Shown one piece after another: positions 5,579-13,558 of a DNA stretch of 32,000 bases (its first letter is position 1; each line of letters starts with the position of its first letter). The DNA comes from Syntrophorhabdaceae bacterium. Lineage in GTDB: Bacteria; Desulfobacterota; Syntrophorhabdia; Syntrophorhabdales; Syntrophorhabdaceae. A model generated the notes under the pieces. That model worked only from the letters and a program-made list of their open reading frames with translations, was not told where the DNA came from and did no database searches. The stretch covers positions 131,385 through 163,384 of the forward strand of contig CAXXUO010000009.1 in NCBI GenBank assembly GCA_963666485.2. Reading direction: 5' to 3'. A program made the position numbers and the translations under genes.

Positions 5579-6628
5579 TCAGCTGTTTACAATATTTCTC
5601 CAATCCGTCACCACCGGATCGAAGCCTTTCGCTGTGAGCATTGCCTTGACCTCATCGAAGGTCCGCGGGTCGAAGACCTGGAACTGGCCGTCGTCGTACT
5701 CGGACTTGTCGATGTATCCGCCGACGCGGGTCGAAGACCCGGCCGACATCTTCGTCACGCCGAACTCGAAGATGCGGTCCCGGAATTCGGGCGTCTCCCG
5801 TGTCGAGAGGCTTATCCCGGCCCGGGGGAAGAACAATCGCGCCGCGCACATGATCTTCAGCATCTCCCTGTCGGTAACCTCAATGTAATTATGCTCGTCG
5901 TCGACGACACGCCTCAAGCGCGGGAACGCGAGGCCAAACTCGACGCCCGGGTACTTTCTCTCGAGGTTCCTGATATGCTGGAAAAGGGCGATGATGTCCT
6001 GCCGCCAATCGGTGAGGCCAAGGAGGACCCCCATCGATATGTGGCGCATCCCCGAACGCGCGATGCGGTCCGGGGCCTCGACACGGTAGTCATAGACCTT
6101 CTTCGGCCCGGCAAGGTGAAGCTCGTCATAGCGGGCCCGGTCATACGTTTCCTGGTAGAGTGTCACCCCGTCAACCCCCGCGAGGTAAAGCTCGCGGTAC
6201 TCATTCTCTTCGAGGGGATAGACCTCGACGGCGACGTAGGGGAAATGGCGGCCGGCGATGATGCAGGCGTCCCGGATATACTGCGGCGAAGAATGGAAGC
6301 GCGACTCTCCCGTCAGGATGAGGCAGCTGCGGATCCCGGTCGCGGCGAGCGCGGCGCATTCCCTGTCTATCTCGTCCATCGTGAGCTTGCTGCGCGGAAT
6401 TATCTTTGACGACGCGTGGAAACCGCAATAGACGCATTCATTCTGGCAATAATTGGCTATGTAGAGGGGGGCATACAGGCTGATCGTCCGCCCGAACTGG
6501 CGCCGCGTCAGCTCGCGCGCCGCATACGCCATTTCTTCGAGCAGGCCCCTGTCGTCATACGAAAAAATGCGGCGAATGTCACCGATCGTCAGATGCTCGA
6601 GGTCAATTCCGGACAAACCTTTATTCAT
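5579..6628 (-). CDS. thiH: 2-iminoacetate synthase ThiH (radical SAM)
   Basis: Radical-SAM motif [10 protein letters not shown], about 350 aa, ThiH-like throughout, and the last gene of a thiE-thiS-thiG-thiH array. Confidence 0.9.
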
Positions 6629-7397
6629 CGTAGAGGAACCCCGTGAGCGGCGATGAAGCGCGTGCTATCGACCTTTCTTTTCCCATTTTTGCGAGATACG
6701 CCATCCTGCCTGCTTCAACACCCCGCGCGAATGCCATCGCCATGAGCGGCGGGTCCTCGGCGTCCGCGACGGCGGTATTGGCAAGCACCGCGTCCGCGCC
6801 TATCTCCATTGCCTCGGCGGCATGGGACGGCCTGCCAATTCCCGCATCGACCACGATCGGGACCTCGTTGATCTCTTCTATGAGAACTTCGATAAGAGCC
6901 CTCATCCTGAGGCCCTGGTTGGACCCGATAAGGGAGCCGAGCGGCATGACCGCCGCCGCCCCGGCGTCTACCAGCTCCTTCGCGACATACAGGTCGGGGT
7001 TCATGTACGGCAGGACGGTAAAACCCTCGGCGGACAATATCTTCGTCGCCTTTACCGTCTCCCGGTTGTCGGGCAGGAGGTACCGGCTGTCATTGATCAC
7101 CTCGATCTTGATCCAGTCGCCGTACCCGGCCTCCCGGGCGATGCGGGCTATCCTGACCGCCTCGTCCGAATTTCTTGCACCCGACGTGTTCACCATGATG
7201 GTGGTCCCCTCAGGAATGAAGGAGAGGATGTTCTCATCCGTGTCTTCGAGGTCTATCCTGCGCAGGGCGACCGTCACGAGCTGAGAGCCCGAGGTCAGGA
7301 TCGCCTGTTTCATCGCCTCCTTGTTCCCGAACTTCCCGGTGCCGAGGAAAAAACGGCTTGTAAATTCCCTGCCGGCGATCAAGAGTTTATCTTCCAT
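6621..7397 (-). CDS. thiG: Thiazole synthase ThiG
   Basis: [19 protein letters not shown], the NTSG motif and [13 protein letters not shown] are typical of ThiG. The ATG at 7397 is preceded by GGGAGGGGG and lies 1 nt after the thiS stop. Confidence 0.93.
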
Positions 7398-7398
7398 G

Positions 7399-7599
7399 TC
7401 AGCCCCCTCCCACAAAGGACACCATCTCTATGCGGTCTCCATCGGTGAGGACCGTCAAAGGCCACTGGTCGCTTTTCACGACGCCATCGTTAAGGACAAG
7501 GATCACCCGCTCGGGGTTCGCCCTGCCTGAATAGACGAGCCGGTGGAGGTCCATGCCTTCCGCAATCTCCGTCTGCCTGCCGTTCACTGTGATCTTCAT
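7399..7599 (-). CDS. thiS: Sulfur carrier protein ThiS
   Basis: 66 aa, MKITVNG...[14 protein letters not shown] with a C-terminal Gly-Gly. Its ATG at 7599 overlaps the thiE stop as ATGA. Confidence 0.9.
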
Positions 7600-8189
7600 T
7601 GTGCTGCCTTCCTGATACGTTTCAATAATGCCGGCGCGTCGGTGCATGCCCGTACGACGCCGATCGTTTTTGCCCCTGCCTCGAGGACATCGTCGATATT
7701 CGTAAGGTCGATGCCGCCGATCGCGACTGCCGGTATGTCGAGGTTCTGCGCCGCTTCCCTGACGTACGCAAGGCCGACCGCGGGCCTGCCCGGCTTTGTC
7801 GGCGTCGGGTAGACGGGGCCGGTCGAAATGTAATCCGCTCCGTCCGCGATCGCCTGCCTGCCCTGTTCGAGATTATGCGTTGTCTTGCCGATGATCATAT
7901 CGCTGCCGACGATCGCGCGCGCGTCCTTCGTCGACATATCCTGCCCGATGTGGACCCCGTCCGCCCCCGCTTTTACTGCGAGCCGCGCGTCATCGTTCAG
8001 GATGAAGATAAAATCCCTGACCTTTTTGTATTCCACGATCTCGCGCGCCTTCTCGAGAACGGCACTTTCGTCGCCCGTCTTGTCGCGCAACTGCACGATC
8101 GCGGCCCCATCGTCAACCGCCTGCTTTAAGTCGTCCACGGACGCAGAAATGACATAAAGGTCATTTCTGAATGGTAATCTTCGCGTCAT
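7596..8189 (-). CDS. thiE: Thiamine-phosphate synthase ThiE
   Basis: 197 aa, LYVISAS...IVQLRDK...GADGVHIGQDM...GADYISTGPVYPTPTKP is typical of ThiE. There is no obvious Shine-Dalgarno sequence upstream of ATG 8189. Confidence 0.9.
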   Translation of the reverse strand: MTRRLPFRNDLYVISASVDDLKQAVDDGAAIVQLRDKTGDESAVLEKAREIVEYKKVRDFIFILNDDARLAVKAGADGVHIGQDMSTKDARAIVGSDMIIGKTTHNLEQGRQAIADGADYISTGPVYPTPTKPGRPAVGLAYVREAAQNLDIPAVAIGGIDLTNIDDVLEAGAKTIGVVRACTDAPALLKRIRKAAQ

Positions 8190-11696: not shown

Positions 11697-11712
11697 AAGG
11701 CTCCTGTTTTTA

Positions 11713-13032
11713 TTAAGCCGCCGATGCCGTTTTTGCCGCCGCAGCTTTAAGCGCCTGGTCTATGTCCTCTTTTATGTCCTCGACGTCCTCGATCCCTATG
11801 GACAGCCGTATAAAGTCCGGGGTGACCCCTGTCGTCACCTGCTCCTCGGGCGTCAACTGCTGGTGCGTCGTCGATGCCGGATGGATAACGAGGGTCTTCG
11901 CGTCGCCGATGTTCGCGACGTGCGAGAGAAGCTTGACCGAATCGATGAACCTGCGGCCCGCTTCGAGGCCCCCCGCGATGCCGAAACCGACAAGTGCACC
12001 GTACTGCCCGTTCAGGTATTTCGCCGCGTTGGCATGGCTCGGATGGTCTTCAAGGCCGGGATACCGGACCCATTCCACCAGGGGATGGCCTTGCAGGAAC
12101 CTCGCGATCTCGAGCGCGTTCCGGGAGTGCCGCTCCTGCCTCAAGGGCAGCGTCTCGAGCCCTTGCAGGAAGAGGAACGCGTTGAACGGGGTGAGTGCCG
12201 GCCCTAAGTCCCTCAAACCTTCGACCCGGGCCTTTATAATGAACGCAATGTTGCCCAATCCGGGGACATCGCCGAAAGCATCCCAGAATGTTATCCCGTG
12301 ATAGCTCGGTTCGGGCTCCGTGAAACACGGGAAATTCCCGTTCCCCCAGTTGAACTTGCCGGAAATCAACGATCACGCCGCCTATGGACGTGCCGTGCCC
12401 TCCGATGAATTTCGTCGCAGATATCACGACGATATCGGCCCCGAAATCGATAGGCCTCATATATCCCCGTCCCGACCGTGTTGTCTACTATGAAGGGGAT
12501 CCCGGCCTCATGGGCAATTGCCGCTATGGCTTCAAAGTCCGGCCACGTCGAGCTTGGGATTTCCGATCGTCTCCGCGAATATTGCCTTGGTACGCGGCGT
12601 AATTGCCGCCCGGAAATCCTCCGGGCGCGACGACTCTACGAACTTTACCGTCCGGCCGAGCTTGGCAAACGTGTAGTGAAGCAGCTGGTACGTACCGCCG
12701 TAGAGATTGTTTGCCGCGACGATCTCATCCCCGACGCTCGTTATCGTCAGAAGGGTCAACGCCTCGGCCGCCTGGCCCGATGCAACCGCAAGGGCTGCCG
12801 TGCCGCCTTCTATGGCGGTGACCCTCCGCTCGAAGATGTCGTTTGTCGGGTTCATGATGCGCGTGTAAATATTTCCGAATTCCTTGAGTGCGAAAAGATT
12901 TGCCGCATGGTTCGCGTCTTTGAACACATACGATGTCGTCTGGTAGATGGGCACGGCACGGGCCCCGGTCACAGGGTCCGGGGTTTCCTGCCCCGCATGT
13001 ATTGCCAGTGTCTGGGTTCTATATGTGGCCAT
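11713..13032 (-). pseudogene. metY: O-acetylhomoserine sulfhydrylase MetY, reading frame disrupted by three single-base insertions (or sequence errors)
   Basis: - The N-terminal part (12532..13032) and the C-terminal part (11713..12369) are in the same frame.
- Between them the homologous sequence runs in two other frames: [25 protein letters not shown], then [33 protein letters not shown], which contains the PLP lysine.
- The frame shifts sit at short base runs: 12539-12542, 12465-12468 and 12363-12365. Confidence 0.85.
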
Positions 13033-13111
13033 TTCGGTCTCCTTTTTTCAGTTTTCTTAAAATCGTAAACGTTTTTCAGGGACTGCCAGGTGAGAGAACC
13101 CGCCCGGGGCT

Positions 13112-13558
13112 CTAAATGTAGTACATCATAGAGTCTTGCTGCCCTTTGAGCTGCTGCATTTCAACAAGGGTAGCAATTGAATAATCGTTGAGGGTGTTCC
13201 GGATAGCGGCGCCCAGCTTGTTCCAGATCTCACGGGTGACGCACACGCCGGATTTGTCACAAACTGCTGTATTCTGCACGCAGTCAACAAGGGTACAGGG
13301 CCCTTCAAGTATGGTGATAATATCGAGGATCGTTATCTGATCGGCCGGCCGGTCGAGGAGGTAGCCCCCTTTTCTGCCGCGCTGCGCCTTCACGATGCCG
13401 CCTTTGTGGAGGGCCGAGAATATGTGCTCGAGGTACTTCTCGGAAACGTTCTGCCTTTTCGCGATATCGGAAAGGAACACGGGGGTGCCGTTCGTACCGT
13501 GCACCGCGAGGTCTATTATCGCCCGCAACCCGTATCTTCCTTTTGTCGATATCTTCAC
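13112..13558 (-). CDS. Rrf2 family transcriptional regulator (IscR/CymR-like, probable Fe-S binding)
   Basis: MKISTKGRYGLRAIIDLAVHG... winged-helix N-terminus. Cys cluster C-x4-C-x6-C-x5-C (GPCTLVDCVQNTAVCDKSGVC). GTG start at 13558 with AGGTGA 4 nt upstream. Confidence 0.9.
   Translation of the reverse strand: MKISTKGRYGLRAIIDLAVHGTNGTPVFLSDIAKRQNVSEKYLEHIFSALHKGGIVKAQRGRKGGYLLDRPADQITILDIITILEGPCTLVDCVQNTAVCDKSGVCVTREIWNKLGAAIRNTLNDYSIATLVEMQQLKGQQDSMMYYI

Follow-up and report, generated by a model that had tools for sequence, protein, structure and literature searches.

The question raised by the stretch of DNA described here is whether a single activating enzyme of the ubiquitin-like (Ubl) carrier systems (E1) might load two different carrier proteins with sulfur, one for the synthesis of homocysteine and the other for that of thiazole. 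The stretch, referred to below as the window, is the whole 32,000 nucleotides (nt) that were analysed of contig CAXXUO010000009.1 from a Syntrophorhabdaceae bacterium. On its minus strand, from 13558 down to 5579, lie ten genes in the order rrf2-metY-metX-metW-E1-GG145-thiE-thiS-thiG-thiH, where GG145 stands for a protein of 145 amino acids (aa) ending in Gly-Gly (GG). An earlier, sequence-only reading of this DNA had proposed that GG145 is a carrier dedicated to MetY and that the E1, which has a rhodanese domain and probably selenocysteine (Sec), charges both GG145 and ThiS. GG145 is probably a protein sulfur carrier of a new kind, and probably a general carrier that is not restricted to MetY.

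Organization of the operon

The features on which the argument rests are as follows.

13560-13614, minus strand: promoter-like site TTGACA-17-TATACT with a conserved 5' leader, upstream of rrf2 (11 of 12 consensus positions)
13112-13558, minus strand: gene of an rrf2-family regulator, the first of the operon (PF02082, E 1.2e-38)
11713-13032, minus strand: metY, for O-acetylhomoserine sulfhydrylase, its frame interrupted by three insertions of 1 nt each (comparison with relatives)
10530-11696, minus strand: metX, homoserine O-acetyltransferase (NF001209, 505 bits, cutoff 331)
9914-10552, minus strand: metW (TIGR02081, 227 bits, cutoff 189.5)
8740-9909, minus strand: E1 with rhodanese and ThiF/MoeB adenylation domains, 389 aa, predicted Sec at 309 (PF00581 and PF00899)
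8983-8985, minus strand: UGA, predicted selenocysteine codon, codon 309 of 389 (conserved frame and Cys homologues)
8949-8970, minus strand: hairpin GUCCUGGGGGUCGUCCCGGGUC, candidate selenocysteine insertion sequence (SECIS), 12 nt past the UGA (folding)
8260-8697, minus strand: GG145, 145 aa, four-Cys motif, linker and predicted beta-grasp C-terminal domain (no Pfam or NCBIfam match)
7596-8189, minus strand: thiE (PF02581, E 1.2e-52)
7399-7599, minus strand: thiS, 66 aa, ending in VSFVGGG (TIGR01683, 66 bits, cutoff 37.45)
6621-7397, minus strand: thiG (PF05690, E 9.4e-102)
5579-6628, minus strand: thiH (TIGR02351, 430 bits, cutoff 380)

Eight of the ten genes are named by hidden Markov model scans; metY is recognised through its relatives, and the GG145 open reading frame (ORF) matches nothing. 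The genes are tightly joined, and the distances given in the sequence-only reading all proved correct when checked on the sequence. The overlap of metX with metW is 23 nt. Four nucleotides (agct) separate the metW TAA (9914-9916) from the E1 ATG (9907-9909), and the gap from the E1 stop (8740-8742) to the GG145 ATG (8695-8697) is 42 nt. The thiE and thiS genes share an ATGA (7596-7599), thiG and thiH overlap by 8 nt, and thiS is 1 nt away from thiG, provided that the latter starts with the ATG at 7397. Both small proteins singled out in that reading, ThiS and GG145, do have GG immediately 5' of the stop codon. Terminator-like sites were looked for in the intergenic gaps of the operon and none was found, and no riboswitch for thiamine pyrophosphate (TPP) or S-adenosylmethionine reaches the Rfam gathering thresholds between 4000 and 15000. 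The ten genes probably form one transcript, an Rrf2-headed operon for sulfur incorporation in an anaerobe of the Syntrophorhabdaceae type.

The selenocysteine-containing E1

The E1 consists of an N-terminal rhodanese domain (PF00581, residues 20-112, E 1.1e-17) and an adenylation domain (PF00899, residues 132-367, E 3.1e-77, covering the full profile). The active-site Cys is present in the CxxGxR(S/T) loop of the rhodanese domain (VYCAIGVRS), as is a nucleotide loop of the GxGxxG type (VVGAGGLG). Two zinc-site CxxC pairs, CLRC (291-294) and CPLC (369-372), align with those of E. coli MoeB (EcMoeB) and E. coli ThiF (EcThiF), which together with Uba4 of C. thermophilum (CtUba4) are the closest solved structures. 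The protein remains below every named equivalog cutoff: the best score is obtained with NF006444 (MoeB, PRK08762; 418.8 bits against 449), followed by MoeZ (350 against 647) and ThiF (TIGR02356; 233 against 275).

The UGA codon aligns with the crossover-loop Cys of these enzymes, namely C187 of EcMoeB, C184 of EcThiF and C202 of CtUba4. In the distinct orthologues encoded beside relatives of GG145, this codon is TGA ten times and TGC nine times. The reading frame continues past the TGA for 80 conserved codons, GVLGVVPGQ...CPLCG (reading SDAGVLGVVPGQ...), up to the second zinc CxxC motif. Judged by this conservation, the E1 is a real selenoprotein, variable between Sec and Cys among its orthologues, in which Sec replaces the crossover-loop Cys. 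The probable Sec of the sequence-only reading is thus borne out.

The hairpin downstream of the UGA forms in each of the nine Sec-type sequences that were folded, the window among them, with energies of -10 to -18 kcal/mol and a z-score of only -0.2. It does not discriminate in favour of a SECIS: its stem is dictated by the codons for GVLGVVPG, and a hairpin also forms in close Cys forms. It was for this reason rejected as proof of a SECIS, and is compatible with one and nothing more. No SECIS was matched by Rfam between 4000 and 15000 at gathering thresholds, a permissive scan around the UGA gave noise only, and the 32-kb window has no tRNA-Sec.

No second E1 was found among the window ORFs scanned, and the rhodanese-ThiF protein is the sole ThiF candidate for the neighbouring ThiS. 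A function as a molybdopterin-only MoeB was considered and rejected, there being no moaD or moaE nearby and the conserved partners being metYXW, GG and thi genes.

The public gene call for the window (P0099, 8983-9909) ends the E1 at the UGA, after 308 aa, and 13 of the 17 nearest database homologues (at least 67% identity) are likewise cut there, at 302-313 aa. On some contigs the remainder of the E1 after the UGA is called as a separate gene of 55-59 aa. The Cys-type rhodanese-E1 of one metagenome locus (L012, 10295-11515) itself terminates in ...CDVVGGG.

The domain pfam05237 (MoeZ_MoeB) corresponds to the stretch immediately past the ThiF domain. The selenoprotein MoeB family was placed in pfam05237 in the Global Ocean Sampling (GOS) paper (PMC2398784), and MoeB has been catalogued as a selenoprotein family since 2005 (Zhang, Fomenko & Gladyshev, PMC1088965; GOS 2008, PMC2398784; reviews PMC9312934, PMC13188914). 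The sequence-only reading had considered Sec in the E1 crossover loop to be uncharacterised. This holds in that no biochemical study was found; the family as such, however, has been known since 2005 (PMC1088965, PMC2398784). Like the catalogued proteins, the one described here belongs to the ThiF/MoeB family, has a UGA within its reading frame and has homologues with Cys. However, the texts of the catalogues give neither the position of Sec nor a partner carrier or operon context, and they read the family as one of molybdopterin biosynthesis, whereas the context in the window is that of methionine and thiazole genes.

GG145 and its family

The N-terminal part of GG145 carries a four-Cys motif, CxxxCPF...CxECGxYRGRH. 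It is followed by a variable linker and by a C-terminal part of about 75 residues with the tail ECPRFMMLSGG-stop. Across 13 close homologues 53 columns are invariant, and the GG is invariant both there and in an alignment of 28 sequences. An exhaustive profile search found at least 80 clusters at 50% identity, nearly all of them terminated by GG in a tail ...PRFMLLxGG-stop; a second word-indexed protein search, made with a diverse alignment, gave 23 proteins only. From metagenome contigs 105 true members were obtained by way of a degenerate DNA pattern for PRFMLLxGG-stop, so that these have the GG-stop by construction and are biased towards the exact tail. Free-standing versions of the C-terminal part, 73-80 aa long, exist in the family. 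Its members are frequent in metagenomes of wetlands and sediments and are labelled "hypothetical" in every source. Neither GG145 nor seven diverse relatives match Pfam or NCBIfam, and a profile search of the PDB with the family gave nothing meaningful and no sequence relative.

An AlphaFold2 model of the C-terminal domain has a predicted local distance difference test (pLDDT) score of 89 and the order beta-beta-alpha-beta-beta-alpha-beta. Its Foldseek neighbours are almost all ubiquitin-like: PB1, SUMO and UBL domains and one bacterial Ubl. The domain is therefore predicted, on the strength of the model, to be a beta-grasp carrier of an undescribed family. The conserved GG tail and this predicted domain agree with the original description of GG145 as a GG-terminated carrier-like protein.

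Gene neighbourhoods in relatives

Gene neighbourhoods were compared in 46 distinct metagenome loci with usable flanks, the features being counted within 5 kb of the GG-family gene. The arrangements in the window and in its relatives (loci are given by L numbers) are the following.

Window and L007: rrf2-metYXW-E1-GG-thiESGH
L009, L111 and L130: rrf2-metYXW-nifS-like-E1-GG-thiESGH
L001 and L008: rrf2-metYXW-nifS-like-E1-GG-PP-loop-bioB-thiESGH
L003: GG-rrf2-metYXW-nifS-like-E1-thiESGH, the E1 directly abutting thiE
L122: thiESGH-rrf2-metYXW-E1-GG, with thiESGH relocated
L010: rrf2-metYXW-GG-nifU_N-E1-GG, without thi genes
L131: rrf2-metYXW-E1-GG-PP-loop-bioB-xdhC, without thi genes; E1 only 54% identical, metW/E1 overlap of 4 nt
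L011: PP-loop-bioB-E1(Sec)-GG-GG

The metYXW-E1-GG block is kept without thiESGH nearby in L010, L131 and L045. Since the block persists where thiESGH is absent or has moved, it is the stable core of the arrangement, to which thiESGH is attached only in the subclade of the window. In the window and at least 12 related loci metY shares one operon with a GG carrier and an E1, and the E1 adjoins the GG gene in the window and in 15 or more loci built like it. Pairs of a Sec-type E1 and a GG gene also occur without thiS, in L011 and on the P0055 contig. The position of the GG gene shifts: it lies upstream of rrf2 in L003, and in L005 there is a second copy beside a PP-loop gene.

The counts over the 46 loci are:

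E1: 19 of 46
CysK or MetY/cystathionine gamma-synthase (CGS)-type sulfhydrylase: 22 of 46
both E1 and sulfhydrylase: 16 of 46
cysteine desulfurase: 13 of 46
rrf2: 15 of 46, standing ahead of metY or of GG genes
thi genes: 3 of 46
JAB peptidase: 2 of 46
GG gene heading a xanthine-dehydrogenase-type operon: 13 of 46, never with an E1 or sulfhydrylase
none of these features: 8 of 46

The proximity of the family to E1s (19 loci) and to sulfhydrylases (22 loci) is well above chance. In at least ten distinct loci cysK (TIGR01139, 479 bits) lies less than 200 nt, typically 8 nt, 3' of the GG gene, and a recurrent order is rrf2-E1-nifS-GG-cysK (8-nt spacing)-cysE-yqeB-xdhC-metY-thrC. The arrangement CGS-JAB-GG occurs in two loci. 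These results support the view that GG145 is an E1-dependent carrier, that its family is linked to the making of sulfur amino acids, and that the E1-GG pair belongs with metYXW.

The proposed relay

By analogy with ThiF, MoeZ and Uba4, the E1 would first adenylate the C-terminal Gly-Gly of the small beta-grasp protein. Sec309 would then take over the acyl group, either as a selenoester, if the enzyme behaves like Uba4, or later as an acyl-selenosulfide, if it behaves like ThiF. The persulfide on the rhodanese Cys (YCAIGVRS) would resolve this intermediate and leave a protein thiocarboxylate. With ThiS as the substrate, the product would supply thiazole synthesis by ThiG and ThiH; with GG145, it would supply the synthesis of homocysteine and, in relatives, of cysteine.

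Because the partners of the GG family are E1s, cysteine desulfurases, CysK and MetY, GG145 most likely donates sulfur, in thiocarboxylate form, to homocysteine synthesis. The carrier proposed in the sequence-only reading and its link to homocysteine thus stand, on gene context; the dedication to MetY does not. Members of the family are also paired with cysK, with a PP-loop ATPase and bioB, and with molybdenum-hydroxylase operons. In addition, the gene moves within the operon and is kept in the window and in L130, where metY is damaged, and a JAMM peptidase is missing. The relay mechanism as a whole we consider somewhat more probable than its contrary. That MetY is the acceptor in this particular organism is possible, with the weight of probability leaning the other way.

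The most specific form of the proposal is that GG145 represents a new carrier family with four-Cys and beta-grasp parts, charged by a Sec-containing rhodanese-E1 and donating directly to CysK or MetY without a JAMM peptidase, with one Sec-E1 serving both GG145 and ThiS. All of these elements together form a conjunction that we regard as tentative and rather doubtful.

Observations that weigh against the relay

Several observations weigh against a relay from GG145 to MetY. The first of these concerns metY itself. Its in-frame translation contains seven stops between residues 167 and 221, and alignment with six relatives places three single-base insertions near 12544, 12462 and 12365. The insertions jointly restore the frame, yet the stretch with the pyridoxal phosphate (PLP)-lysine motif falls out of frame; the intact MetY of relatives has 432-436 aa. 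About 17 other genes common to the window and its relatives are intact, so the sequence is not generally error-ridden. The insertions lie within 180 nt of each other, and this clustering argues against a uniform sequencing error; there may be a local assembly fault in metY at 12360-12550. In the nearest relative available (L130, about 85% DNA identity) the PLP region of metY is intact, and the gene (4481-5383) has instead an independent in-frame deletion of 420 nt by which the C-terminal domain of MetY is lost. Two different lesions in sister sequences suggest that metY may be decaying within the subclade. The E1 and GG145 are nevertheless intact in both, and metX and metW are intact as well, despite the metY lesions. 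If the lesions are real, GG145 has another acceptor in this organism.

Secondly, homocysteine could not leave its adduct with the carrier without a JAMM peptidase, on which both characterised precedents depend, and no JAB domain of the JAMM, Mec+ or HcyD type was found in the window ORFs scanned or in the loci of the window's architecture. A third group of observations concerns GG145 and its family. The protein is unrelated in sequence to ThiS, MoaD and CysO (hhalign probability 0.1%, against an eight-row alignment, half of whose rows, namely ThiS of E. coli and of B. subtilis, MoaD of E. coli and CysO of M. tuberculosis, were entered by hand). Its Foldseek matches are weak, with E values of at least 0.03 and a template modelling (TM) score of about 0.5. 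The family also occurs beside a PP-loop ATPase and bioB, and it heads molybdenum-hydroxylase operons without an E1; a PP-loop/NFACT-R_2 gene and bioB stand by the GG gene in relatives, though not in the window.

Finally, the sister genome GCA_054635515.1 has on another contig (L005, 1-2510), by sulfate ABC transporter genes, a cluster of a ThiF-type E1, JAB, sulfite reductase, TusA and a 3'-phosphoadenosine-5'-phosphosulfate (PAPS) reductase, which adjoins a further unit of the order rrf2-GG-PP-loop. This genome thus has both a Wolinella-type system and the Sec-E1 operon.

Alternative explanations

The ten genes might be held together by co-regulation only: as consumers of reduced sulfur they would all be placed under one Rrf2 promoter. 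In that case the E1 would be the ThiF of thiESGH, MetY would use free sulfide, of which an anaerobe has plenty, and the acceptor of GG145 would be unrelated. The conservation of the promoter region fits this explanation. The block TTGACA...TATACTATTCCCATTAAGTTAGTAGGTGAT upstream of rrf2 is kept in seven loci, one of them a second rrf2 adjoining a GG gene, and the promoter and leader are kept across loci that differ in gene content. Back to back with the rrf2 promoter lies a perfect one, likewise of the sigma-70 type, for divergent hydE-like, nifU, nifS and cysE genes (window 13560-13629), and nifU, nifS and cysE are transcribed out of the same region. Furthermore, thiESGH has neither a thiF of its own nor a TPP riboswitch, and the damage to metY beside an intact E1 and GG145, like the missing JAMM peptidase, is as co-regulation would have it. 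However, the E1-GG pair is attached to metYXW in the thi-less loci L010, L131 (with its metW/E1 overlap of 4 nt) and L045. GG genes stand beside sulfhydrylases in nearly half of the loci (22 of 46), and Sec-type E1 and GG genes are paired in places where there is no thiS. Co-regulation as the whole explanation is therefore unlikely, if still to be taken seriously.

A second possibility is that GG145 is a donor like TtuB or Urm1, passing sulfur to a PP-loop ATPase (ThiI and NFACT-R_2) for the thiolation of RNA, possibly to BioB, or perhaps acting as a protein modifier, with its position next to metYXW being incidental. In work of 2008, Shigi and colleagues are said to have found that in Thermus thermophilus one E1, TtuC, is shared by ThiS, MoaD and TtuB, and that the thiocarboxylate of TtuB feeds the PP-loop ATPase TtuA. 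The likeness lies in those relatives of the window operon in which the GG gene is directly followed by one for a PP-loop protein: a gene with PF02568 and PF18297 is found 8-30 nt 3' of GG in L001, L008, L131 and L005, with bioB (TIGR00433, 387 bits) next after it in the first three, and L011 has the order PP-loop-bioB-E1-GG-GG. In the window, however, neither a PP-loop/NFACT-R_2 gene nor bioB stands beside GG145, mnmA and a PP-loop-like ORF being 18 kb away, and the PP-loop genes of the relatives are of the ThiI/NFACT-R_2 type, in contrast to TtuA. Directly 3' of GG, a PP-loop gene is found in 3 of 44 distinct metagenome loci, compared to ten with cysK. The TtuB-like role has accordingly a low probability for GG145.

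The third explanation is that selenium is what the Sec-E1 and the GG carrier pass on, as a selenocarboxylate or as selenocysteine made by CysK, to selenium-dependent molybdenum hydroxylases. It draws on the type B loci, in which yqeB (TIGR03309, 316 bits, cutoff 220) and xdhC lie between cysE and metY, on the 13 of 46 GG loci that head xanthine-dehydrogenase-type operons, and on the fact that the E1 itself would be a selenoprotein. However, the window ORFs scanned include no yqeB, xdhC, selD or molybdenum hydroxylase, the xanthine-dehydrogenase-linked GG loci are never near an E1, and the neighbours in the window are ordinary sulfur pathways. Selenium trafficking is thus very improbable, and the related idea that GG paralogues supply molybdenum hydroxylases with their terminal sulfido or selenido ligand can be given no more credence.

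That the TGA truly ends the protein or is an error, which would make the E1 a pseudogene cut short and GG145 an ORF by chance, might be suggested by the public gene call of 308 aa (P0099) and by the damaged metY of the same operon, but both parts were rejected with next to no doubt remaining, the first on the 80 conserved codons beyond the TGA with their second zinc CxxC and on the TGA (ten) and Cys (nine) orthologues, the second on the 53 invariant columns and the hundreds of relatives.

Comparison with known systems

A link of Ubl carriers and E1s with cysteine synthase and O-acetylhomoserine sulfhydrylase was predicted in 2006 (Iyer, Burroughs & Aravind, PMC1779556), and the HcyS/HcyF/HcyD/MetY relay of Wolinella succinogenes is given as biochemically shown in the work cited in PMC8191291 (Krishnamoorthy & Begley 2011; Tran et al. 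2011). As in Wolinella, metY stands together with genes for a GG carrier and for an E1 of the ThiF type; there the thiocarboxylate of HcyS is the sulfur donor for O-acetylhomoserine sulfhydrylase, and the same is proposed for GG145. However, GG145 is not of the ThiS family in sequence and has an additional four-Cys N-terminal part, and the E1 differs from HcyF by its N-terminal rhodanese domain and predicted Sec. The operon described here has neither a JAMM peptidase (HcyD) nor a sulfite reductase, metX, metW and thiESGH share it, and its metY is damaged.

The CysO/MoeZ/CysM/Mec+ system of M. tuberculosis and the operon types 4c-4e (PMC1779556) have in common with the present one a rhodanese-bearing E1 and a Ubl carrier supplying a PLP sulfhydrylase. 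The wider GG family comes close to types 4c-4e, with cysK 8 nt 3' of the carrier and with the E1 and cysteine desulfurase upstream. In contrast to MoeZ, the rhodanese domain is N-terminal instead of C-terminal, and in contrast to the CysO/Mec+ system, no more than 2 of 46 GG loci have JAB and the GG carriers are undetectable by ThiS/MoaD profiles.

The E. coli ThiF-ThiS and the Uba4-Urm1 pairs share with the E1 the adenylation domain, the zinc CxxC pairs and the reactive position in the crossover loop. At this position C184 of ThiF forms an acyl-disulfide, while C202 of Uba4 forms a thioester with Urm1, which is then attacked by the rhodanese persulfide (PMC7527816); in the E1 the residue is the predicted Sec. 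Uba4 is likewise a fusion of rhodanese and E1, with the difference that here the rhodanese precedes the adenylation domain. Unlike both pairs, the present system has two candidate substrates.

Further observations

Around the operon, an AAA_28-domain gene of 385 aa (window 4340-5497, minus strand) is situated directly 3' of thiH and has the same position in the relatives that extend past thiH (L001, L003, L007, L008, L009, L014, L025 and L127). A 95-nt tRNA-Ala (anticodon agc; 17534-17628, minus strand) reported by ARAGORN lies antisense within the cysE ORF and is probably a false positive. The rrf2-side block TTGACA-17-TATACT with ATTCCCATTAAGTTAGTAGGTGAT, conserved in seven loci including the second rrf2 beside a GG gene (L005), is a candidate Rrf2 operator.

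The PP-loop ATPase of the relatives has about 330 aa, with a ThiI domain and a C-terminal NFACT-R_2 RNA-binding domain, and lies directly 3' of GG in L001 (10447-12446), L008, L131 (11687-13746) and L005 (10455-10735). In L011 (6664-8660) it precedes the E1 instead. It is paired with bioB in L001, L008, L131 and L011; L005 ends inside the PP-loop gene.

A GG subfamily of 153-161 aa with the motif LSDDFE.L heads xanthine-dehydrogenase-type operons, GG being followed by FAD, Fer2 and MoCoBD genes, with no E1 or sulfhydrylase nearby (L021, L024, L033, L043, L053, L065, L069, L095, L101, L108, L119 and L126). One of these, L024, also has a cysteine desulfurase and, by eye, a TusE/DsrC-type gene. 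The subfamily may have a role in cofactor sulfuration.

In L094 (oriented 5372-6990) and L038, which have the E1-nifS-GG-cysK type of cluster, yqeB (TIGR03309, 316 bits), a gene of selenium-dependent molybdenum cofactor biosynthesis, and an xdhC-family gene are located between cysE and metY. L094 also encodes (oriented 12341-12577) a 78-aa protein with the end ...VILESVIGGG, whose last 40 residues are like the GG family; it adjoins a MOSC-domain-like gene and fdhD, both identified by eye. This protein may be a distant member of the GG family linked to molybdenum cofactor sulfuration.

Significance

Thiocarboxylate routes to cysteine and homocysteine are represented by two biochemically studied systems, those of M. 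tuberculosis and W. succinogenes, and both have a ThiS/MoaD-type carrier and a JAMM peptidase. The general idea of the relay is already known. What is new are the unannotated carrier family, the predicted Sec in the catalytic loop of the E1, and the lack of a peptidase. In practical terms, public annotation cuts the E1 short at the UGA, both in the record of the window and in 13 of the 17 nearest homologues. The GG145 family, unrelated in sequence to ThiS and MoaD, fills the same genomic place as their carriers, usually without a peptidase nearby. The operon thus provides a gene set with which to ask how sulfur is routed into amino acids in anaerobes and whether several carriers can be served by one E1. 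The same genes allow one to ask what is gained by selenium over sulfur at the catalytic loop of an E1, at a residue whose role differs among ThiF, MoeB and Uba4.

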